Shown piece after piece: positions 1,880 through 44,384 of a stretch of 51,173 bases of DNA. This DNA is from an uncultured Clostridiaceae bacterium. Lineage in GTDB: Bacteria > Bacillota > Clostridia > Monoglobales > Firm-18. The notes beneath the pieces are model-generated. The model saw only the letters and a program-made list of their open reading frames with translations, did not search any database and was not told the DNA's origin. The position numbers were made by a program, and so were the translations under genes. The first letter of the stretch is position 1. Every line of letters starts with the position of its first letter. The stretch lies in the NCBI GenBank assembly GCA_964455565.1, contig CAYVWT010000003.1:1-51173 (forward strand), in the 5' to 3' direction.

Positions 1880-3997
1880 TTATTGAGCTAAATTAATTGG
1901 CTTTGTACCATCTTGTTTTAGCTTGTATATTTTTAGTACATCATTTTCCCAATAAACTTCAAAATTCTCTTCTTGCTGGATTTTTTGCTGAATGTAATTT
2001 TCTATCCAATAATATGCCTTTGCCTCAACAATCCTGCGATTTTTATAATTAGTGTAGAACTTTTCATATGCCGCTCCCACGTCTGGGAAAGGTTGATTAT
2101 AATCCTCTTCAGATAGTGGGTTTGTTAAAACATACGGTTGTGCCTGATTAAGTGGCCGCTTTTCAATAAAAACAAATACATAGTCGGTTGGGAACTCAAT
2201 TTTTGCTTTTGGTTTAACTTGAGTTTCTTCAACGAATTGCCATAAATTATAATGCCATCCATACCCTAAGCTTTGTTGGTATTGTTCTACGGGTGATATT
2301 ATAGTCCAATTCAAAAGTGGAAATTCCGACTTAATTTTGTAATATGCATACGCTGCCTCGTCATATTCAAGCTTTGCTCCCACAGGCATAAGCTGTTTAT
2401 AATCCTGCGCTTGAAAAACCGTCATAATTATTAGTGCACCCATAGCAATTTTCACGATATATTTAATAAGCTTATGAAATGGGAAAAACTCAATAATATA
2501 AATTGCCATTGCAAATAAAACTACGACAATAACACCAAAAAATGTGCTTGCACGGGAAAATTCCATAACAGATGGAAAACCTACGTCTATTGAGCGAACC
2601 TGCGTGTATGTAAAGGCAGATAATACAACAAACATAACGAAAAGCTTCATTTTCCCTGTGTATTCCGGGGTTTTTTTGAAAAATATTCGTAAAAGTGCAT
2701 ACGCCAATATTACTATACCAAATATCATAAACAATTTCATAGCTGGATTTGTTTCAACGTATCTAAATATTTCTTCCTTCCAGTTAAGCTTAACGCTAGT
2801 CGTAGCGCTCTCTACAACGAAACCGAGTGACAATGCGTGGAATTTCATACCCATCGAAAGCGCAATTCCAATCGGAAGTAAACTGATTATAGTCGCAAAG
2901 CCCATTGACGCTAAAAGCTGTACGAATGTTTTGCCTTGAAATACCTTGTTAACATTGAGGATTGCAAGAATTACATATCCAATAACAAGGAACAGCGCTA
3001 CATAAAAGTGGATAAACATAGTAACAGCCAAAACCTCTGCCGCTAATATCATATATGTTTTTTTGTTTGTTGTAAAAAATAAATTTAAAAAATAAAACCC
3101 AGGTAGCAAAAATATTGTAGCATACTCCTGTGGAAGTGCAGACATTTGCCTCCAAATATTGTTTGAAGCATTTGGTAGTTCTGTGCCTAATACATACGCT
3201 GCCACGCCGATGAATATAATTAGGTATTGATTTTTAAAGCTCTTTTTTAGTATGTAATAAATTGAAAGAACTATTAAAAAGCTACCCATACCACCAAAAA
3301 ACCTTACTATAACCACAGGGTCTAAGAAAAATAGTTTGCTAATTGCAGAAATTATAGCCTCGTAACCGTATGGATATACTCCATCTTGGTAGATGCTGTT
3401 TATACCCAAATATTTCGTCCACGCTAAATGAACGTAACAGTCTGATGCGCCATAATAAAGAAACTCAAACGAATGTCTAAACCTAATTATAGCGGCAATA
3501 ATGAAAATTCCAAAGAGCAAAATGCCCGCAAAAGGATGCACAAAAAAATGTATGAAAGCATTTTTCAGTCTATCTGGCAACGCCTTTAAATATGCTTTTG
3601 CATATTTTTTTGGTCCACCCAAAAGCCCGGATTTACCATCTACTAAGTCCAAAGAAATAGAAAAAAACCCAACCTCTTCCTCTTTTACTTTATCAGTTTT
3701 AATTGAATAATTTTTGCGAATTGCAAAATATGCAATAAGCAAGGCAATTATTGCAATTGTTAAAGAAATTGTTTCGTAAATTCTAAACAAAACAAGTAAG
3801 TGAACTAAAACAATTATCGCAAAATTAGAATGAGTTAGTGATATAAATACTCTATCCGTCCAATCGTCGGATAATTCATCAAAGGTAACAGCCTTCGAAG
3901 GTATAAATATATATAATATGTAAAAAGCAAGTACAACTTTTAGAAAAAGAATTATTGTAAATTGCAACGGAAACATCATATCACCTCTTCTTTTCAA
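1880..3997 (-). CDS. Large polytopic membrane protein (over 12 predicted TM helices) with a C-terminal soluble domain; possible GT-C-type or polymer-modifying transferase, function unverified
   Basis: 705-aa ORF, hydrophobic throughout. An acidic cluster follows TM1 (FDELSDDWTD). The roughly 170-aa hydrophilic C-terminus is homologous to that of the adjacent 4010..6001 product (NWTIISPVEQYQQSLGYGWHYN vs QWMIISFQEGYTLAFGNGFHMN; DYVFVFIEKRP vs EDIFIFYEKNI). Only 2 nt separate it from the downstream gene's RBS. Confidence 0.6.
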   Translation of the reverse strand: MKRRGDMMFPLQFTIILFLKVVLAFYILYIFIPSKAVTFDELSDDWTDRVFISLTHSNFAIIVLVHLLVLFRIYETISLTIAIIALLIAYFAIRKNYSIKTDKVKEEEVGFFSISLDLVDGKSGLLGGPKKYAKAYLKALPDRLKNAFIHFFVHPFAGILLFGIFIIAAIIRFRHSFEFLYYGASDCYVHLAWTKYLGINSIYQDGVYPYGYEAIISAISKLFFLDPVVIVRFFGGMGSFLIVLSIYYILKKSFKNQYLIIFIGVAAYVLGTELPNASNNIWRQMSALPQEYATIFLLPGFYFLNLFFTTNKKTYMILAAEVLAVTMFIHFYVALFLVIGYVILAILNVNKVFQGKTFVQLLASMGFATIISLLPIGIALSMGMKFHALSLGFVVESATTSVKLNWKEEIFRYVETNPAMKLFMIFGIVILAYALLRIFFKKTPEYTGKMKLFVMFVVLSAFTYTQVRSIDVGFPSVMEFSRASTFFGVIVVVLFAMAIYIIEFFPFHKLIKYIVKIAMGALIIMTVFQAQDYKQLMPVGAKLEYDEAAYAYYKIKSEFPLLNWTIISPVEQYQQSLGYGWHYNLWQFVEETQVKPKAKIEFPTDYVFVFIEKRPLNQAQPYVLTNPLSEEDYNQPFPDVGAAYEKFYTNYKNRRIVEAKAYYWIENYIQQKIQQEENFEVYWENDVLKIYKLKQDGTKPINLAQ

Positions 3998-18574: not shown

Positions 18575-21145
18575 TTAGTTATAATCTATTTCATTTCTTT
18601 TTAGCTTCTTTGTTGGGTCATTTTTATATTTACCAGCATCGTTTTCAGTAAAGCCAAAGGAAGCTCTCATTGCATCATCATACGCCCAATGTGAATCAGA
18701 TAAATCAGGGTATGGATTTGTTATATCGCCAATATCATAGGTACTATCTCTGCCTATTAAACGGTTTATCATAACAACATATTCAGCACGGGTTAATTGC
18801 TCATCCGGTCTTATTGTGTTATCACTATAACCCTTTAATAGTCCAACATCATAAAGCGCCTTAACATAAGTATAATACTTATTGCTTTCAGTCAAATCTT
18901 TAAAGCTTATAGCATTAGTATCGTCTGGCTGTAAACCCATTGCAAATGCAATAAGCTTGCTTGCCTCGCCCCTTGTAATTGGTGCAGTAGGCTTAATGTT
19001 ATCTGTCTTTGCAAATGCGCCGATAAATTTCATATATTCTATTGCATTAAATGACCATCTGCCTTTTTCCAAATCGCCATAGCTTGAACTTGAAGGAGGG
19101 TTAAACCTGCCTGTTTGTCCATCTTGTTTTAATAAACGGTATAAAAGCGCTGCAGCTTCTTCCCTTTTTACACTATCTTCAAGACCAGCTACGCCCTGTT
19201 CATATCCATAAAGATATGCATAGCTATAATTGATATAAACTCTTTTTGCAGGTGCAGGTGTTGGTGTTGGTGTTGGTGTTGGTGTTGGTGTTGGTGTTGG
19301 TGTTGGCGTTGGTGTTGGTGTTGGTGTTGGAATAGTTGCTGGCATTGTAACAGTAACTGTGCTCGTTACATTTCCTCCCATACCGTCAGACACTGTAACA
19401 GTAAAGCTGTCAACACCTACAGCATTTAATTTTGGTGTGTACACCCAAGCCCCTGTTGTTGTATTTTCAGAAGCATCACCTTTTGTTGCCACTGTACCTA
19501 CAATATATGTAAGTGGGTCTTTATCTGCATCTGTCGCAACTATTGCACCAGAAACCGGGGTGTTTGAAGCTGTGTTCACGCTTATGTTTGAAGTAACAGG
19601 AATATGGTTTGCTTTAATATTAAAACTCATACTTGCTGTTTCAGAATATGCTATTCCATCGCTTGTTGCCTGCCATTTTAGTGGTGAGCTACCTACAAAA
19701 GAAGAAGATGCTACAAAAGTTAACACATTAAAGCTACTTGCTGATATTATATCTCCAACCTTTACAGCAGTTCCATTATTTTTAAATATTCCAGCGCTTG
19801 ATAATGGCAAAGCTATAACCTTTATTTTAGCGACATTACTTGAATAGCTATCGACAAATTCTTTACCTGTAAACTGGTATGTGGTATTTTGTCTTGTGTT
19901 AATTGTGCTATCTATTATTTTAGCTGTAATACCAGATTTTCCAAAATTACTAATAGAAACCGTTCCATTATTACCACCCTTTGAAGCGTCAATCGCTCCA
20001 TTAACCACTAATGTACCGGTTGGAACCTTGCTACCATCTAAAAATGCAGTTGCAGTACCTTTTTCATCTGTAACAACATTAGTTGGAGTTGTAAATTCCG
20101 CATCAGGACCGGATAAAACAGATAATGTCAAAGGTATTCCTGCTGCCACAGTTCCGTCTGAATTTTTAACTGTTGCAGTAATAAGGCTTGTTTGTGCATT
20201 AGAAGAAGGTGTTGCTGTTAATTCAATTTTTGGTGACTCTATATATTTATTATTAACAGGGTCTATTGAAGTAGTTACATAGTCATTATTAAAATACCAT
20301 GATTTTATATACTCCTTCGAGTATGCTCCACCTGTTGCACCAGTAAAGCCTGCAAACACTTTATCTGTTATAAGTGTGGTTGAAGAAGAAAGGTTTATAC
20401 TCTGAGTTAATATTGCTTTTTCAGGGCGAACTGTTGAATCTGCGCTGACTCTTACGCTTAAAATTTTAGTTATACCATCATAGTCTATCCATGCAGTATA
20501 TGTTTTTTCCTTACCACTCTTAGGAGCAGAGTTTCCATTGCTTGTTCCGTTACCAAAGTTAAATGTGCCAGCTGGTACACCATACAGCTTTTCGATGTCA
20601 ACTTCCTTGATTTTGGCTATAGGGTGCATGGTATCACCATTAATGTTGATTGCTACGTGATTTTGAGACAAGCCAGAATCTCCATATTCGGAGGAGTTAT
20701 CCCATGTATCAAATTCAACGCCAAGGCTGTTAGTAACTCCTGAATAACCCATTCCGCCACCTAATGCCCCAAGATTATTTGTGTTAGTATTTATAACGAA
20801 TACAATACCATCGGCACCACTCGGTCCAATACCCCCTGGGTTTGTTATATTAAATGTAAACATTGTACTAAAAGACCTATCATTGGCAAGTGAAACATAG
20901 TTTCCACAATAAAAGCTACCACTTTGATTGGTCAGTGCATCGGTCAATCTAATATCTTGTGTTGAGCCTTGTTTTACAGCCGTTGCAGTTCCATTTAGTT
21001 TAATTCGAGCAGTATTTGAAAAGTCTGGATATATAAATGTAATTGCTGAGTTTTTTGCCGCACTAACATTTATTCCTAATTGAAAAGTTAAAACAGCCAT
21101 AATTGTTAAAAAAGATATTACCCTCGAAAATATTGCTTTGCTCAT
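18575..21145 (-). CDS. S-layer-homology-anchored surface protein with an N-terminal legume-lectin-like domain, Ig-like and cadherin-like domains, a (PT)n linker and 3 SLH repeats
   Basis: Signal peptide MSKAIFSRVISFLTIMAVLTFQLGINVSA. Lectin_legB-like blocks: IKLNGTA…LTDALTNQSGSFY…FSTMFTFNI…GADGIVFVI…GGGMGYSG…LGVEFDTWDN…NHVAININGD. Cadherin/VCBS-like block: AIVATDADKDPLTYIV…DSFTVTVSDGMGG. A (PT)12 linker follows. C-terminal SLH motifs: SFKDLTESNKYYTYVKALYDVGLLKGYSDNTIRPDEQLTRAEYVVMINRLI. Confidence 0.8.
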   Translation of the reverse strand: MSKAIFSRVISFLTIMAVLTFQLGINVSAAKNSAITFIYPDFSNTARIKLNGTATAVKQGSTQDIRLTDALTNQSGSFYCGNYVSLANDRSFSTMFTFNITNPGGIGPSGADGIVFVINTNTNNLGALGGGMGYSGVTNSLGVEFDTWDNSSEYGDSGLSQNHVAININGDTMHPIAKIKEVDIEKLYGVPAGTFNFGNGTSNGNSAPKSGKEKTYTAWIDYDGITKILSVRVSADSTVRPEKAILTQSINLSSSTTLITDKVFAGFTGATGGAYSKEYIKSWYFNNDYVTTSIDPVNNKYIESPKIELTATPSSNAQTSLITATVKNSDGTVAAGIPLTLSVLSGPDAEFTTPTNVVTDEKGTATAFLDGSKVPTGTLVVNGAIDASKGGNNGTVSISNFGKSGITAKIIDSTINTRQNTTYQFTGKEFVDSYSSNVAKIKVIALPLSSAGIFKNNGTAVKVGDIISASSFNVLTFVASSSFVGSSPLKWQATSDGIAYSETASMSFNIKANHIPVTSNISVNTASNTPVSGAIVATDADKDPLTYIVGTVATKGDASENTTTGAWVYTPKLNAVGVDSFTVTVSDGMGGNVTSTVTVTMPATIPTPTPTPTPTPTPTPTPTPTPTPTPAPAKRVYINYSYAYLYGYEQGVAGLEDSVKREEAAALLYRLLKQDGQTGRFNPPSSSSYGDLEKGRWSFNAIEYMKFIGAFAKTDNIKPTAPITRGEASKLIAFAMGLQPDDTNAISFKDLTESNKYYTYVKALYDVGLLKGYSDNTIRPDEQLTRAEYVVMINRLIGRDSTYDIGDITNPYPDLSDSHWAYDDAMRASFGFTENDAGKYKNDPTKKLKRNEIDYN
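19251..19330. repeat. In-frame hexanucleotide tandem repeat (ggtgtt)n encoding the (PT)n linker
   Basis: ggtgcaggtg ttggtgttgg tgttggtgtt … read directly. There are about 12 units with one ggcgtt variant. Confidence 0.95.
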
Positions 21146-21237: not shown

Positions 21238-21301
21238 AAAAAAAGCCGTATATAAACCGAATATGAAGATTTCTCTACATAATATTGGAATAATAAACGG
21301 C
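21238..21301 (-). terminator. Intrinsic terminator/attenuator inside the 5' leader of the lectin gene
   Basis: Minus-strand RNA GCCGUUUAUUAUUCCAAUAU…AUAUUCGGUUUAUAUACGGC forms a long imperfect hairpin with a 4 G-C pair base. It is followed by UUUUUUU (A-run at 21238-21244 on the plus strand). It lies about 90 nt upstream of the RBS and ATG at 21145. Confidence 0.65.
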
Positions 21302-21393
21302 AGCTGGCTGTCATATCCTAAACGAATTATGGACTTAGACCCTATAGCTTTGTGCAATTGCCTTTCAGCAATTATACTTTTTACGATTGTTAT
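21290..21393 (-). promoter_or_regulatory. GEMM-I (c-di-GMP-I)-like riboswitch aptamer candidate, possibly a variant
   Basis: Minus-strand RNA …AAAAAGUAU-AAUUGCU-GAAA-GGCAAUU-GCACAAAGCUAUAGGGUC-UAAG-UCC…GGA-UAU-GACAGCCAGCUGCCG. One hairpin is capped by a GAAA tetraloop (21356-21373). The adjacent hairpin (21306-21342) carries a near-canonical 11-nt tetraloop receptor: UCUAAG/UAUGA versus canonical CCUAAG/UAUGG, with a compensated C-G to U-A pair. The CAAAGC linker matches the ACGCAAAGC linker of GEMM-I. The 3' flank GCCGUUUAU is the 5' arm of the terminator. Confidence 0.55.
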
Positions 21394-28453: not shown

Positions 28454-29724
28454 TACGCTTCACTTCCTTTCAGGAAATATACCGTGTCTAAAAGTATATC
28501 CTTTGCCACTTCAATTACTTGCTCTTTCGTTACTAAGCTTACAAGCTCTACAAGCTCGTCAATTCCAATTATATTTCCTGCAATTAGCTTGCTTAAATAG
28601 TAATCCTCCATCAAAACTGCGTTATCGGTAAGCGATTTAATACTATTTATCGTGCCGAGAATTGCTGTATGCATTTCCTCGTCTGTAATATCGCCATTTT
28701 TAATAGCCTCCATTTGAATTATAATTTCATCATAGGCTTTTTGGAAATTTGCAACCTCTATGCCAGAATTTATAAGCATAATTCCTTTTAGATAATCTGC
28801 ATTAGACGAAACATAGTATGCAAGCGAAAGCTTTTCACGAACATTATTAAACAGCTTTGAATATGGCCCACTGCCAAGAACTGCGTTATATATAAGCAGG
28901 GCAGGGTATTTTGCGTCATTTGGTTCAACCATTGTGCGAAAGCCCATACACAGCTTTGCTTGTGCTATTTGCTCTGTTTCGGTTATATTTTTAACCTCGG
29001 CAACATTTTTTATTATTGATATTTTAGGGTATTTTGAGTTTTTAACCTCTATCCCTGCAAACATTTCTAAAAGCCTTTGCTCTACCCAAAATATATCAAC
29101 CTCGCCACAGACGAATATGTCCATAGGGCTTGTCAAAAAAGTGTTCTTATAATGCTCATATAGGCTGTTTTCAGATATACCGTCAATATCTTCAATAAAT
29201 CCGAACCTATCTATTCCATTTGGCTCGTCCTTGCACATTTCTTCTATGCATCGAAGTGAGGCATACTGGCGTTTGTCATTGATTTGCGATAGTATTTGAG
29301 TTTTTAAATTCTCCTTTTCTTGCTCTACATACTCCTTTGAAAAATGAGTTTGTTTAAAAATCATACTATCCGCAAGGGCTAATATGCTTTCCAAAATTTT
29401 CTCTGAATTATTTATAAATTTTTCGTTAGCAAATGATAAATTTATATTGATAATTTGCGAATCGCCTTTTTTGCGCACGCCTGTTTCAAGGGTTGCACCG
29501 TATAGCTCGTCAAGCTGTTTTGCAAGGCTTCTACTATCTGGAAATAACGTACAGCCTCTTCTCAAAACGGTTGAAAGTAGCGCATTTTTCGTCGCCTCTT
29601 CCCTCGTTAAAGGTCTGTGGATATATACTCCAAGAGTTGTAGTCTTAAACTTATTTGTGTGCAGATAATGCAAATGTATTCCACTTTTTATTTTTATAGA
29701 ATTTACGCTCATATCAAGTACCAT
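28453..29724 (-). CDS. M16-family peptidase-like protein lacking the HxxEH motif (probable non-catalytic partner)
   Basis: M16 fold-like sequence (…YIHRPLTREEATKNALLSTVLRRG…) without HxxEH. Start is ambiguous: ATG at 29724 (inside the conserved leader element) or ATG at 29712. The track start at 29769 reads through the conserved RNA element and is unlikely. Confidence 0.75.
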   Translation of the reverse strand: MVLDMSVNSIKIKSGIHLHYLHTNKFKTTTLGVYIHRPLTREEATKNALLSTVLRRGCTLFPDSRSLAKQLDELYGATLETGVRKKGDSQIININLSFANEKFINNSEKILESILALADSMIFKQTHFSKEYVEQEKENLKTQILSQINDKRQYASLRCIEEMCKDEPNGIDRFGFIEDIDGISENSLYEHYKNTFLTSPMDIFVCGEVDIFWVEQRLLEMFAGIEVKNSKYPKISIIKNVAEVKNITETEQIAQAKLCMGFRTMVEPNDAKYPALLIYNAVLGSGPYSKLFNNVREKLSLAYYVSSNADYLKGIMLINSGIEVANFQKAYDEIIIQMEAIKNGDITDEEMHTAILGTINSIKSLTDNAVLMEDYYLSKLIAGNIIGIDELVELVSLVTKEQVIEVAKDILLDTVYFLKGSEA

Positions 29725-29905
29725 TAGCCTTTCAGGCTCACAAAATTTTATTAATGTCATACCACACACTTATCGTGAGCCAGATAAGGCGTTAAAATGG
29801 TACTTTGCACATAGGCGTTTCGAAGCAGCTTTTGCTACGAAAATTTCGCCTGTGCAATAAATTCCTGCGGAGCATGTTAGTTTGAAAGCGGTTTTCTTTC
29901 AAACT
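29720..29905 (-). promoter_or_regulatory. Structured 5' leader element, copy A (upstream of the M16 peptidase pair)
   Basis: It shares identical blocks with 35777..35947 (plus-strand reading): a 32-nt block accattagcctttcaggctcacaaaattttat, a 19-nt block cgtgagccagataaggcgt, and a 13-nt block gtgcaataaattc. The blocks are separated by stems that differ between copies but stay complementary. Confidence 0.55.
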
Positions 29906-29935
29906 ACACCTCGCAAATATTTTTATAGAACAAAA

Positions 29936-29952
29936 GCCCGAACATATCGGAC
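29936..29952 (-). terminator. Possible intrinsic terminator after the 163-aa membrane protein gene
   Basis: Minus-strand GUCCGA-UAUGU-UCGGGC is followed by UUUUGUUCU. The stem is short (6 bp including G-U). Confidence 0.4.
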
Positions 29953-29968
29953 TTTTAGATTATTCCTA

Positions 29969-35267: not shown

Positions 35268-35780
35268 TTAATTGGCTACTTTGACCATTGAATGTCTTAT
35301 TACTTTTTCCTTATATTTATACCCCTTAGCAAACTCCTCGACAACTATGTTATCACCAAAGCTTTCATCATCAATATGCATAACTGCATTGTGCATTTCA
35401 GGGTCGAACTGCTCGCCTACTGCGTTAATTTGCGCAACGCCTATGTTTTTAAGCGCATCCTCAAATTGCTTTTCAATAAGCTTCACACCATCTAAAACTG
35501 TTTTGGCATCGCTTTTTACCTCTGATGATATTGCCCTTTGCAAATTATCAAAAACAGGCAATACAGCCTCTACAACATCTGCCGCAGCATCTGTGTATAT
35601 TTGAATTTTTTCTTTTTGTGTACGTTTTTTGAAATTATCAAATTCTGCAAGCAGGCGCATATATTTATCATTTAATTCCTTTTCTATGTCTACCTCTTGT
35701 TGCTGTTCAGCTTCTTCTACTTCTTCGGTTTCTTCGTTTTCTAAAATTTCAAGTTCGTTTTCCGTCATAAGTTTGACCAT
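35268..35780 (-). CDS. grpE: Nucleotide exchange factor GrpE
   Basis: Acidic N-terminus, then YMRLLAEFDNFKKRTQKE … FDPEMHNAV…GYKYKEKVIRHSMVKV. Start is the ATG at 35780 (inside the conserved leader element) or the ATG at 35768. Confidence 0.93.
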   Translation of the reverse strand: MVKLMTENELEILENEETEEVEEAEQQQEVDIEKELNDKYMRLLAEFDNFKKRTQKEKIQIYTDAAADVVEAVLPVFDNLQRAISSEVKSDAKTVLDGVKLIEKQFEDALKNIGVAQINAVGEQFDPEMHNAVMHIDDESFGDNIVVEEFAKGYKYKEKVIRHSMVKVAN

Positions 35781-35947
35781 TAGCCTTTCAGGCTCACAAA
35801 ATTTTATAAAACTTTTGACCTACTCCAAACCGTGAGCCAGATAAGGCGTATAAATGGTCATATGCACATCTGCGCTTCGCCTATATAGGCGAAAATATCG
35901 CAGGTGCAATAAATTCAAGGGTGAAGTCTGAAAGGAACTTTCAGACT
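35777..35947 (-). promoter_or_regulatory. Structured leader element, copy B (hrcA-grpE intergenic region)
   Basis: Same conserved blocks as 29720..29905. The 5' hairpin AGUCUGAAAG-GAA-CUUUCAGACU overlaps the hrcA stop codon. The 3' end …GUGAGCCUGAAAGGCUAAUGGU contains the first grpE ATG and is complementary to the upstream ACCAUU…GCCU…GGCUCAC. Confidence 0.55.
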
Positions 35948-36999
35948 GTATCCTCCATAATGTTTTTTTGCACTAATTTATTTAACTGCTGCGTGAAAAA
36001 TTCAAGATTAGACGCAGCACGAGAATAGTCCATTCGAGTAGGACCAATTAGCCCTATTGTACCAACCACATTATCACCAATTGTATATGATGTCAGCACC
36101 ACCGAGCAATCTTGAAGCTCTAACGCCTCGTTTTCGTTACCAATGATTATTTTAACCTTTTGCCCCTCACAAAGTGCCACCGTTCTGTTCAAATTTGCTT
36201 TATTATCTAAAAATTCAAGCAACTGCTTTGCACGGTTAACATTGCTATATTCGGGGAAATTAAGTAGGTTTGTTGCACCACCTAAGAAAACCTCAGAATT
36301 CTCAGTAGAATTCATACATTCATTTGCAAATTTTAATATTTGCATTAATATGCTTTGATGATTTATCATTTCATTTTGCAATTCAACTATTAAATCAATA
36401 TCAATTTTATTTTGTGGTATTCCTGCAAGCTTTTCATTTAATATATTAGAAATTTCGTTTGCCGTATAAGAATCAGTCGGAACATCAAAGCTTATTCTTT
36501 TGTTTTTGACAATGTTTATATCCGTCATAAGCATTAACATACCGCTATTATCATCAATTGTAACAAGGTGAAAATGCTTTACATAGCCACGTTTAACCTC
36601 CTCAGTTGCACCAATTATAGTATAATTCGTTAGCCGAGAATATATGTTTGACATTTCTTTTACCATTGAATCCATCTCGGCAACTTTAAGCTGCATTAAT
36701 GTGTTCATTTTGCTTATTTCGTTTGCAGTTAGCTCATACCTTTTCATAAGCCTATCAACATACATTCTATAACCAAGGTGTGATGGTATGCGCCCTGCCG
36801 AGGTGTGTGGTTGTTCTAAAAGTCCCATATCTTCAAGGTCTGCCATTTCGTTTCTTATTGTTGCAGGGCTAAGGTCAAGGTTGTGGTTTTTTGATATAGT
36901 TCGAGAGCCAACAGGTTCTGCTGTTTCTATATAGCTTTCGATTACTGCGCCGAGTATTTGCTTTTTCCTCTCATCAAGCTCCACTATTATCACCTCCAT
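35941..36999 (-). CDS. hrcA: Heat-inducible transcription repressor HrcA
   Basis: ERKKQILGAVIESYIETAEPVGSRTISK… is a typical HrcA N-terminal wHTH. Start is the ATG at 36999, or more likely the GTG at 36984, which lies 8 nt after GGAGG. The track start at 37008 falls inside the CIRCE operator. Confidence 0.93.
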   Translation of the reverse strand: MEVIIVELDERKKQILGAVIESYIETAEPVGSRTISKNHNLDLSPATIRNEMADLEDMGLLEQPHTSAGRIPSHLGYRMYVDRLMKRYELTANEISKMNTLMQLKVAEMDSMVKEMSNIYSRLTNYTIIGATEEVKRGYVKHFHLVTIDDNSGMLMLMTDINIVKNKRISFDVPTDSYTANEISNILNEKLAGIPQNKIDIDLIVELQNEMINHQSILMQILKFANECMNSTENSEVFLGGATNLLNFPEYSNVNRAKQLLEFLDNKANLNRTVALCEGQKVKIIIGNENEALELQDCSVVLTSYTIGDNVVGTIGLIGPTRMDYSRAASNLEFFTQQLNKLVQKNIMEDTV

Positions 37000-37001
37000 T
37001 G

Positions 37002-37028
37002 TTAGCACTCTACCTTGTTGAGTGCTAA
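37002..37028. promoter_or_regulatory. CIRCE operator (HrcA binding site)
   Basis: TTAGCACTC-N9-GAGTGCTAA is a perfect match to the CIRCE consensus. It lies immediately upstream of hrcA. Confidence 0.95.
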
Positions 37029-37040
37029 ACCCTTAACATA

Positions 37041-37069
37041 AAAATAACACTATTTGGTCGATATGTCAA
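37041..37069 (-). promoter_or_regulatory. Candidate sigma-A promoter of the hrcA-grpE-dnaK-dnaJ operon
   Basis: On the minus strand: TTGACA (37069-37064), 17 nt spacer, TATTTT with an upstream TG (GTGTTATTTT). CIRCE starts 13 nt downstream. Confidence 0.55.
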
Positions 37070-43089: not shown

Positions 43090-43100
43090 GTTGGTGAATT

Positions 43101-44384
43101 ATGAAAAGTGTTACACTTACTCCATCAAAATTAAACGGGAGCGTTGTTATCCCTCCATCAAAATCACTTTGCCACAGGGCTATTATTTGTGCTTCTCTTG
43201 CAAGTGGCATTTCTGAAATCCATAATATTGGGCAATCACTTGACATAGATGCAACTATCGACGCTATGACAGCGCTTGGTGCAAACATTTCAAGGGACGG
43301 CGACCGTCTTATTATCGACGGAACGCACACATTGAAAAAGGCTACGCCATTAACAATAGACTGCTTTGAAAGTGGCTCTACATTAAGGTTTTTAATTCCT
43401 ATTGCACTACATTCTAAGGCACCTATTACATTTACTGGTTTTGGGCGTTTGCCTACTCGTCCACTAAATGCATATTACACATTATTTAAGCAAAAAGAAA
43501 TTGAATATACTAATGATAATGGTGCATTGCCACTTACTATAAACGCAGGGGACATTAGCGGTGTTCTTGAAATCGAGGGGGATATTAGCAGTCAATTTAT
43601 TAGTGGTCTGCTGTTTTCGCTTCCTCTTTATCCGTTTGATAGTGAAATTAGAATTACTACGCCACTTGAATCCAAAGGCTATGTTGATTTGACGATTGAC
43701 ATTATGGAGAAATTTGGAGTTACTGTCCATAATAATAATTATCATACATTTAGAATACACGGTGGGCAAAGCTATAAGCCTACAAATTATACTGTTGAGG
43801 CTGATTTTTCACAGGCTGCATTTTTTCTTGCGGCAGGGGTACTTGGTAGCTTTGTTGTGTGCAAAGGGCTTAGCCTTGAAAGCAAGCAGGGCGACAGAGA
43901 AATAATAAAAATAATTGAGCGAATGGGTGGAAATATAGTTTGCGAAAATGACGGAATTGCGGCACTTCCGTCAACACTTCACGGCTGTGAGATTGATGCC
44001 TCGCAAATACCAGACCTTGTTCCAATTCTAACAGTTCTTGCCTCCCTTGCAGAGGGTGAAACCTTAATTACAGGCGCAAGCAGGCTTCGTATAAAAGAGA
44101 GTGACAGGCTAACTGCTATTACCGAACAGCTAAACTCGCTTGGCGCAACTGTGTTAGAGAAAAATGATGGCTTAATTATAGAGGGTGCAGGCAGTTTAAA
44201 GGGTGGCACAACAAATAGCTGTAACGACCATAGAATTGCTATGTCAGTTGCTATTGCCACAACCTGTTGCATTGATATTGTTGTTTTAGAGGATAGTGAC
44301 TGCGTTAAAAAATCATACCCTCACTTTTGGAGTGATTTTGCAAGCTTAGGAGGAATTGTTGATGAGTGGAATGTGGGGAAATAA
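43101..44384 (+). CDS. aroA: 3-phosphoshikimate 1-carboxyvinyltransferase (EPSP synthase)
   Basis: PPSKSLCHRAIICASLA, ESGSTLRFL, LRIKESDRL and NDHRIAMS. Confidence 0.95.
   Translation: MKSVTLTPSKLNGSVVIPPSKSLCHRAIICASLASGISEIHNIGQSLDIDATIDAMTALGANISRDGDRLIIDGTHTLKKATPLTIDCFESGSTLRFLIPIALHSKAPITFTGFGRLPTRPLNAYYTLFKQKEIEYTNDNGALPLTINAGDISGVLEIEGDISSQFISGLLFSLPLYPFDSEIRITTPLESKGYVDLTIDIMEKFGVTVHNNNYHTFRIHGGQSYKPTNYTVEADFSQAAFFLAAGVLGSFVVCKGLSLESKQGDREIIKIIERMGGNIVCENDGIAALPSTLHGCEIDASQIPDLVPILTVLASLAEGETLITGASRLRIKESDRLTAITEQLNSLGATVLEKNDGLIIEGAGSLKGGTTNSCNDHRIAMSVAIATTCCIDIVVLEDSDCVKKSYPHFWSDFASLGGIVDEWNVGK

Follow-up and report, generated by a model that had tools for sequence, protein, structure and literature searches.

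A three-hairpin mRNA element inserted between Shine-Dalgarno sequence and start codon in uncultured Clostridia

The stretch of DNA analysed here, referred to as the window, comprises 51,173 nucleotides (nt) of contig CAYVWT010000003.1 from assembly GCA_964455565.1 of an uncultured Clostridiaceae bacterium. Its minus strand encodes, with gene identities assigned by Pfam and in this order, a hemW-like gene, hrcA, grpE, dnaK, dnaJ, prmA, rsmE, an open reading frame (ORF) of 163 amino acids, two M16 peptidases and lgt. Within this gene cluster two copies of a repeated element of about 175–190 nt are present, both read on the minus strand: copy B (35774..35948) in front of grpE and copy A (29716..29906) in front of the first M16 peptidase gene. 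The copies consist of identical blocks with compensated helices. A 22-mer (GTGAGCCTGAAAGGCTAATGGT) and a 19-mer (ACGCCTTATCTGGCTCACG) occur exactly twice each in the window, whereas shuffled sequences would be expected to hold 0.00 and 0.01, respectively, which places the repeat beyond chance. A preliminary description of the window had located both copies and listed compensated base pairs between them, and these pairs are indeed found in a pairwise alignment of the copies. It had further interpreted the element as a heat-shock-specific thermosensor or processing signal common to the dnaK and the protease operon. This second part did not hold. Copies A and B are recent insertions of a non-autonomous, ORF-less mobile element, which proliferated in a narrow clade of uncultured Clostridia. 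Insertion is always in sense orientation and into the few nt between the Shine-Dalgarno (SD) sequence and the start codon. The element is transcribed within the mRNA, where it folds into three hairpins, and it has no relation to heat shock. We are highly confident that it represents a mobile insertion family and not a heat-shock leader.

Copy B, a B-type element of the short form, lies between the SD sequence and the start codon of grpE and fills the 172 nt that separate the hrcA stop codon (35941-35943) from the conserved grpE ATG (35766-35768). The ancestral grpE SD GGAGG (35952..35956, minus strand) is now 183 nt upstream of the grpE AUG, while in the empty allele of a relative (L035) only 7 nt separate the same GGAGG from the ATG. 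Read on the minus strand, the element begins with the hairpin P1 (AGUCUGAAAG / CUUUCAGACU; 35925..35947), which contains the new hrcA stop UGA (35941-35943) and presents a CUG at the exact former ATG position relative to the SD. This is followed by the anti-SD-like linker UCACCCUU (35917..35924), which can pair with the upstream SD, and by the bipartite hairpin P2 (UUGCACCUGCG ... CGCAGAUGUGCA, with an inner stem; 35863..35909). The long hairpin P3 (35774..35862), like P2 based on the predicted fold and on covariation, forms the 3′ part. Here, 35853-35862 pairs with 35774-35781 in the lower stem and 35832-35847 with 35783-35797 in the upper stem, and the loop spans 35798-35831. The 3′ strand of P3 carries an SD-like GAAAGG (35784..35789) 15 nt before the grpE AUG. 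The in-frame AUG in the 3′ end of the element (35778-35780), pointed out in the preliminary description, is not the conserved start codon: the GrpE of an empty-site relative begins with MTENE at the downstream ATG (35766..35768), which represents the true grpE start. Copy A, an A-type element of the short form, is located between the SD GAGGUG (29907-29912) and the ATG (29710-29712) of the first M16 peptidase gene. Its upstream neighbor is a hairpin resembling an intrinsic terminator (29932-29956).

The insertion events become visible by comparison with relatives, which were reached through GrpE homologues. The grpE site is occupied in the window and in L034 and empty in L035 and L036, which belong to an organism with a GrpE identical by 89%. 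In this organism hrcA and grpE overlap (ATGA) and no spacer is present (...GGAGGATAAATTATGACGG), whereas the junction in the window reads ...GGAGGATA[CAGTCTGAAAG...AATGGTCA]AACTTATGACGG. L036 shares its source metagenome with many of the copies described below. The insertion of copy B shifted the hrcA stop codon into P1 and replaced the last two HrcA codons (35941-35949), so that K-L in the relatives became T-V in the window. The mazE-like ORF upstream of another copy (L001) may likewise end at the equivalent UGA, as far as the frame can be judged by eye. L034 contains copy B and its contig ends within the P3 loop; the assembly probably broke at the repeat (L034:1-60). The GrpE of L034 was called from the AUG inside the element and thus comprises 168 instead of 164 amino acids.

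The M16 peptidase site is occupied only in the window. L034, the GrpE of which is 94% identical, and L035 both display an ordinary GAGGTGT-ATT/GTT-ATG arrangement with a spacer of 67 nt, into which 190 nt are inserted in the window. The opposite situation is found at the start of aroA, which is empty in the window (GGTGAATTATGAAAAG; 43090..43110, plus strand), whereas the relative to which L020 and L035 belong carries a copy there. In blastn the flanks share 87% identity, and the window shows a gap of 166 nt; the left junction of L020 equals the empty allele as far as ATGAAA. This pair is ambiguous, since it reflects either recombination at start-codon microhomology during insertion or a loss in the window lineage through a deletion between the 7-nt TATGAAA repeats. 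Relatives with GrpE identities of 75% and 66% have no copy within 14–20 kb, and none is found in L040, a second region of a relative covering 16.5 kb. Copies at different loci reach 98–99% identity, which indicates, as judged from sequence, a recent spread. At the same time, orthologous copies are more conserved than their flanks (98% versus 87.6% for L012/L031 and 92% versus 86% for L017/L028), which suggests purifying selection on the element. The family thus has features known from miniature inverted-repeat transposable elements: it is small, ORF-less, multi-copy and near-identical, and shows presence/absence polymorphism at three sites.

Altogether, 31 copies were identified in related metagenomic Clostridia by pattern and covariance-model searches. 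An exact-pattern scan of 185,579 species-representative genomes yielded three more copies, all in one metagenome-assembled genome, Clostridia bacterium ES-bin-9, where one copy separates a mazE-like gene from mazF, one precedes pilM and one lies between a T-box terminator and the ileS gene. A scan of JGI metagenomes provided 22 further loci. The covariance model R1, built on 25 copies, recovered all of them and scored copy B over its full length with 195 bits and copy A with 162 bits; a third copy was not detected in the 51-kb window. With R1, two additional copies that deviate from the search pattern (L026:3498-3711 and L017:5423-5606) and one in L035 came to light. Across the 31 copies the length of the element is about 170–231 nt, with a short form of about 170 nt and a long form of about 213–231 nt, and no copy contains an ORF.

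More than 20 unrelated genes lie downstream of the copies. By Pfam, their products include GrpE, M16 peptidase, MazF, PilM, IleS, GltX, PdxT, dCMP deaminase and FabD, furthermore Ldh/Mdh, PanD, AroA, RsmG, a radical-SAM activase and a penicillin-binding protein, and finally an MFS transporter, a polysaccharide deacetylase, an FMN reductase and a prophage tail endopeptidase. Measured against curated cis-regulatory RNAs, this set, which ranges from tRNA synthetases and biosynthetic enzymes through transporters and a chaperone cofactor to a toxin, a pilus protein and a prophage tail protein, is not functionally coherent. The copy preceding the prophage tail endopeptidase gene (L027:4806-4978) shows that the element enters prophage genes too, so that phages could carry it between hosts. 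In ES-bin-9, the copy at L003:367-650 (minus strand) follows a T-box-like terminator (GGTGGTATCACG... with a subsequent U-run) and precedes the ileS start, and the 5′ untranslated region of ileS thereby consists of two stacked leader elements.

The preliminary description had been unable to assign the element to a riboswitch or thermometer class. In Rfam 15, both window copies remain without a match at the gathering score and give only noise at E ≤ 10, and long-form copies give only noise at E ≤ 0.1. No blastn match to the element was obtained in plasmid and phage databases. Eight 18-mer matches in viral contigs fall into one family of phage coding genes in which the rest of the element is lacking, and they were treated as chance. 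The element is not described in the full-text literature searched, which, given the incomplete library, is weak evidence of novelty.

The family occupies an invariant position. In every complete copy a G-rich motif of SD type (GGAGG, GAGGTG, GGAGTG, GGTGA or similar) precedes P1 by 0–8 nt, and the start codon of the host gene is found about 3 nt past the base of P3. The element is co-oriented with the downstream gene in all 31 copies. According to our own count on the aligned copies, GAAAGG and the AUG are separated by 15 nt in the great majority of the 29 complete copies and by 13–16 nt across all of them. In all three pairs of empty and occupied sites, a CUG, UUG or AUG of the P1 5′ arm takes the exact position of the original ATG relative to the SD. 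A conserved 5′ target is not present; the 5′ flanks share only the variable SD-like motif at 0–8 nt. An ATT precedes the ATG in 41% of the copies by our own count, compared with 15% of other gene starts (about 2.8-fold enrichment). Since a motif such as TA-ATT-ATG would occur far more often elsewhere, it cannot account for the targeting. The use of the AUG inside the element as the true start was considered and rejected. It is out of frame in L002, L024, L026 and L027, the deviating spacings of 13, 14 and 16 nt do not differ in multiples of three, and empty-site relatives begin at the downstream ATG. A conserved upstream ORF starting at the P1 pseudo-start codon was also dismissed, as frames and stop positions vary among the copies (judged by eye).

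Both window copies fold alike into P1, the bipartite P2 and the long P3, with z-scores of −6.9 and −6.6 relative to dinucleotide shuffles. In the alignment of 25 copies, standard pairs make up 96.7% of the cells and 10 of the 48 pairs are changed on both sides. The covariation score of 0.128 compares with 0.02–0.04 for slid partners and with 0.049 for shuffled alignments, none of which (0/500) reaches the observed value. Covariation is found in all three hairpins: one pair of P1 occurs as C-G, U-A, A-U and G-C, three pairs are changed on both sides in the middle helix of P2, and the lower stem of P3 reads GACC/GGUC in B-type and UACC/GGUA in A-type copies. The two copies detected only by the covariance model have compensated or wobble changes in the upper P3 stem. 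In L017b, GCCUU/AAGGC is converted to ACCUU/AAGGU, GCAC/GUGC to GUCC/GGAC, and a U-U mismatch to U-A. On the opposite strand, A-C would replace the G-U pairs at the top of P3 and the U-G pair of the second L026 copy (3498-3711); therefore the folded strand is the sense strand, that is, the mRNA, although in principle sense single-stranded DNA would be an alternative.

In P3, a 5×1 internal loop separates the 10-bp lower stem from an upper stem of about 14 bp. This corresponds to the layout of a T7 R1.1-type RNase III hairpin, with about two duplex turns and an asymmetric internal loop. The sequence of P3 is kept on both strands in the A, B and ES subfamilies, whereas the loops and the tips of P1 and P2 diverge. 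About one third of the copies carry an optional arm of 42 nt (CCGACCGTGGCGTTGTTTACAACGCAGTAGGGTACGAAGTAC) in the 5×1 internal loop of P3, nearly invariant and flanked by TAC...TAC. The carriers are L014, L015, L016, L018, L021, L025, L026 (both copies), L028, L031 and L032. The arm is present in both subfamilies, and orthologues differ in it (L012 without and L031 with the arm, L017 without and L028 with it). Outside the element it was never seen. The arm represents either an insertion nested in the element or an ancestral feature that was lost in repeated deletions.

Some sequences are repeated within the element. The motif GGUCA or GGUAC is found twice per element, in the P3 loop and in the 3′ strand, and both instances change in parallel (L030). 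Likewise, AG(U/C)CUGAAAG is present in the P1 5′ arm and in the P3 3′ strand, and between the P1 3′ arm and the P3 3′ strand 9 of 10 positions would be able to pair. Both repeats could represent alternative pairings or paired protein-binding sites. For a pairing of the linker between P1 and P2 with the P3 loop or the 3′ tail no covariation was detected by eye. The two GGTCAAA strings that give copy B a likeness to the CtsR box are missing from copy A, and this likeness was treated as chance.

What does this fold mean for translation initiation? The segment following P1 is pyrimidine-rich and anti-SD-like (ACCCUU, CACCUU, ACCUUU). By prediction, the own 5′ flank stabilizes P1 by a mean of −8.4 kcal/mol, compared with −6.2 kcal/mol for swapped flanks (Wilcoxon p = 0.001), and in these models the orphaned SD tends to be paired. 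At the other end, P3 pairs GAAAGG, the only SD-like string near the start, and thereby sequesters the SD/AUG region as a thermometer would. For positions −21 to +13, the opening cost is predicted at 16.6–20.2 kcal/mol for occupied sites (37 °C) and at 3.8–9.5 kcal/mol for the matching empty sites; for the grpE site, it is 16.6 kcal/mol when occupied versus 3.8 kcal/mol when empty. At elevated temperature the predicted cost at occupied sites still amounts to 12.6–14.4 kcal/mol (55 °C) and 8.8–9.6 kcal/mol (70 °C). The idea of a structured leader with a 3′ helix burying an SD-like string and the region before the start codon is thus borne out by covariation and opening cost; it is the heat-shock role attached to it that had to be abandoned. 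A helix joining the two flanks and bringing the SD next to the AUG, in the style of T4 gene 38, is unsupported (−3.6 kcal/mol versus −3.8 kcal/mol in cross-copy controls).

From these features a mechanism can be sketched, which we put forward tentatively and as a model to which we give clearly less than an even chance. Here, the element would act as a closed substitute ribosome-binding site that needs opening or processing. P1 and the anti-SD-like linker (ACCYUU) would pair with the orphaned SD and the pseudo-start codon and silence both. P3, ending 3 nt before the real AUG, would sequester the element-borne GAAAGG, held at 15 ± 2 nt from the AUG. An open ribosome-binding site would in this way be exchanged for a closed and self-contained one, and translation of the host gene would then require that P3 is opened or cut. 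Candidates for this step are RNase III acting on the stem of about 25 bp with its asymmetric internal loop, a helicase, or a 30S subunit bound in standby. Initiation afterwards would use GAAAGG and the AUG. A role of the element in RNA processing or stability may also exist. Taken as a whole, with most weight on the identity of the element, we consider this account of a mobile insertion family with a closed ribosome-binding site probable.

Several observations weigh against it. A spacing of 15 nt is long for a Firmicute SD and GAAAGG is base-paired in the predicted fold; being distant and paired, it leaves the efficient translation of ileS, gltX, grpE-dnaK and fabD unexplained. The upstream SD is intact in the old orthologous pair L017/L028 despite changed surroundings, which hints that the old SD is still used. 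Terminal inverted repeats are absent, as the 5′ end (TAAGTCTGAAAG) is unrelated to the reverse-complemented 3′ end (TATGACCATTAGCC) and only a subterminal CTTTCAGRCT is inverted in the element. Most copies have TA at the two ends, but a clean TA duplication does not fit the three pairs of empty and occupied sites, and the 7-nt TATGAAA repeat in L020 could equally reflect recombination. About 340 kb of fetched DNA revealed no transposase, reverse transcriptase or autonomous partner, and a short target motif cannot explain why 0 of 31 copies are found at non-start positions. Furthermore, the exact patterns used to gather the copies derive from the P3 core, so that the sample leans toward close relatives and the invariance of the upper P3 stem is partly forced, and all structure energies are predictions.

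Five other explanations have to be weighed. That the element is a heat-shock RNA thermometer, or a processing or stability signal co-regulating the dnaK and protease operons, can hardly be maintained. It is true that P3 buries an SD-like string and abuts the AUG, that ROSE and fourU thermometers also pair an SD-like sequence and the start region in a leader, here in front of a heat-shock gene, and that the dnaK operon mRNA of B. subtilis is processed between hrcA and grpE. However, thermometers are short, weak and conserved in orthologues, whereas P3, with a predicted opening cost of about 17 kcal/mol at 37 °C and about 9 kcal/mol even at 70 °C, is far too stable for a thermosensor. The element is missing from orthologous leaders: the grpE junction is empty in the relative with an 89% identical GrpE, and copy A is lacking in two relatives with 67-nt spacers. 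Many near-identical copies precede more than 20 unrelated genes. With these findings, the outcomes that the preliminary description had itself named as contradicting its reading have essentially occurred. In addition, the post-transcriptional heat-shock control that had been proposed would be added to a conventional one. Upstream of hrcA and outside the element (37002..37069, minus strand), a standard sigma-A promoter-like site, TTGACA-17-TATTTT (37041-37069), is directly followed by a perfect operator of the controlling inverted repeat of chaperone expression (CIRCE; 37002-37028, TTAGCACTC-N9-GAGTGCTAA), which is the conventional heat-shock control of the dnaK operon. A very different proposal, a mobile cassette of promoter and ribosome-binding site, assumes a promoter in the AT-rich P3 loop and a transcript starting around GUGAGCC, which would lack the P3 5′ strand and leave GAAAGG and AUG free. 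A perfect TATAAT or TGnTATAAA about 7 nt before GUGAGCC in L012, L029, L024, L001 and L002 and a TTGGAG-16 nt-TAAAAT in B-type copies point in this direction. We nevertheless judge it very improbable: a consensus promoter scan finds no P3-loop site in either window copy, the −10-like box varies, A-type copies have no −35 box, and the proposal gives no reason why P1, P2 and the P3 5′ strand are conserved.

The element might also be an intron-like guest whose removal from the mRNA, or excision by host RNases, would reunite the old SD with the AUG. The location of 31 of 31 copies exactly between an intact SD and the AUG and the preserved SD in the old orthologous copies L017 and L028 fit this idea, and splicing of the c-di-GMP-dependent group I intron of C. 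difficile, which brings an SD beside the start codon, provides a precedent. Yet no match to a group I or group II intron or to a self-cleaving ribozyme appears even at E ≤ 10, the junctions show neither the exon U and terminal G of group I nor the GUGYG of group II, and only three plain hairpins are supported, without the flank-joining helix discussed above; we regard this explanation as improbable. Quite unlikely, too, is a selfish repeat acting at the DNA level only, the hairpins of which would be single-stranded DNA structures for a trans-acting HUH-type or other transposase. Near-identical, polymorphic copies, the lack of terminal inverted repeats and of a clear duplication, the end-proximal hairpins and the strand-specific insertion recall derivatives of IS200/IS605. 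Against this stand the missing conserved 4–5-nt target on the 5′ side, the fact that no TnpA or TnpB was seen near the copies, and an orientation that tracks the gene in 31 of 31 copies and not merely the direction of replication. Moreover, the fixed 15-nt spacing from GAAAGG to AUG and the anti-SD-like linker are features of an mRNA, and at genes such as ileS or gltX an insertion between SD and AUG would kill the cell if the RNA did not permit translation. A domesticated, genome-wide translational regulon would have P3 bound by a single trans-acting factor (a protein, an RNase or a small RNA), which opens or closes many ribosome-binding sites together, mobility being merely the route by which the regulon grows. 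The P3 sequence kept on both strands across the A, B and ES subfamilies, the conservation of orthologous copies above their flanks, the fixed distance to the AUG and the GGUCA/GGUAC motifs changing in parallel would all be accounted for. No functional theme unites the gene set, in which a prophage tail gene and a toxin are found, occupancy varies between very close relatives, which is odd for a needed regulon, and the invariance of P3 is partly imposed by the search patterns, so that we hold this explanation to be unlikely. Finally, the mobile insertion family might be a new mobile RNA module that targets initiation regions, the fold of which recruits or positions the ribosome on the adjacent AUG in the manner of an internal ribosome entry site, as a portable ribosome-binding site. 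The anti-SD-like segment and the start-proximal end would then recognize and occupy SD-AUG spacers, possibly via an RNA intermediate. This would explain how the element can be present before normally essential genes without killing the cell, but we consider it rather unlikely.

Among known repeats, the mobile insertion family described here behaves most like the transcribed repeats of the Correia, BOX or bcr1 type. From these, as from miniature inverted-repeat transposable elements and IS200/IS605 derivatives, it is set apart by occurring in one position and one orientation only. Correia elements (CREE/NEMIS) of Neisseria are ORF-less, multi-copy and strain-polymorphic elements of 100–155 bp with TA ends, which are co-transcribed and cut by RNase III at hairpins in the mRNA. 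Their 26-bp terminal inverted repeats form the hairpin, and they are found in both orientations and at varied intergenic positions. The element resembles them in its small size, the lack of an ORF, the multiple polymorphic copies, the long mRNA hairpins and the TA at its ends. In contrast, it has no terminal inverted repeats, forms three separate hairpins and is found in sense orientation only and between SD and start codon only. BOX, RUP and SPRITE of S. pneumoniae and bcr1 of the B. cereus group are transcribed repeats of 100–300 nt, some of which have folds with compensatory changes. As interspersed Firmicute repeats with a partly conserved RNA fold they are comparable, although no similarity in sequence or Rfam to the element exists, and to our knowledge none of them has been reported to be restricted to the SD-AUG spacer.

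The PATE derived from IS200/IS605 and the guide-RNA ends of TnpB/IscB share with the element the lack of terminal inverted repeats and of a clear target duplication, end-proximal hairpins, strand-specific insertion and a structured RNA of about 150–200 nt. PATEs, however, need a fixed 4–5-nt target abutting the left end, which is not present here, the left and right hairpins of the element are unlike, Rfam gives no HEARO or IS605-orfB match, and no matching element bearing TnpA or TnpB adjoins any copy in the fetched loci. In the split ribosome-binding sites of T4 genes 38 and 25 a structured mRNA insert also separates the SD from the start codon. There, a single hairpin of about 20 nt restores the SD-AUG spacing, whereas here 170–230 nt in three hairpins are inserted and no helix closes the flanks. 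The C. difficile c-di-GMP-II riboswitch with its group I intron likewise places an RNA between SD and start codon, the fate of which decides whether the two work together. It is a true group I ribozyme at a single locus, in contrast to the multi-copy element, which shows no ribozyme signature.

Small interspersed repeats are common in bacteria, but we know of none that is confined to the few nt between SD and start codon, and none turned up in the Rfam and literature searches. If this confinement is confirmed, the transposition or homing machinery must sense translation start sites, because no short DNA motif explains the presence of 31 of 31 copies at true starts. It would further mean that SD-dependent Firmicute ribosomes initiate efficiently beside a helix of about 25 bp and 170–230 nt away from the original SD, and that the RNA is either processed or offers an unconventional way of ribosome loading. 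The position of the element thus raises the question how its host genes, many of them normally essential, are translated, and the element merits experimental follow-up. On the practical side, gene callers misplace starts at the AUG inside the element, assemblies break within the repeat, and a conspicuous leader before a heat-shock gene is easily mistaken for an operon-specific regulation.

Two further observations concern the window itself. The listed start codon of the hrcA ORF, GTG (37008), falls within the CIRCE operator; therefore the true start of hrcA is probably located further downstream. In addition, the aptamer of a cyclic di-guanosine monophosphate (c-di-GMP-I) riboswitch (21296-21388, minus strand; Rfam RF01051, 63.3 bits, E = 3.9e-10) is present upstream of an ORF of 856 amino acids (18575-21145).

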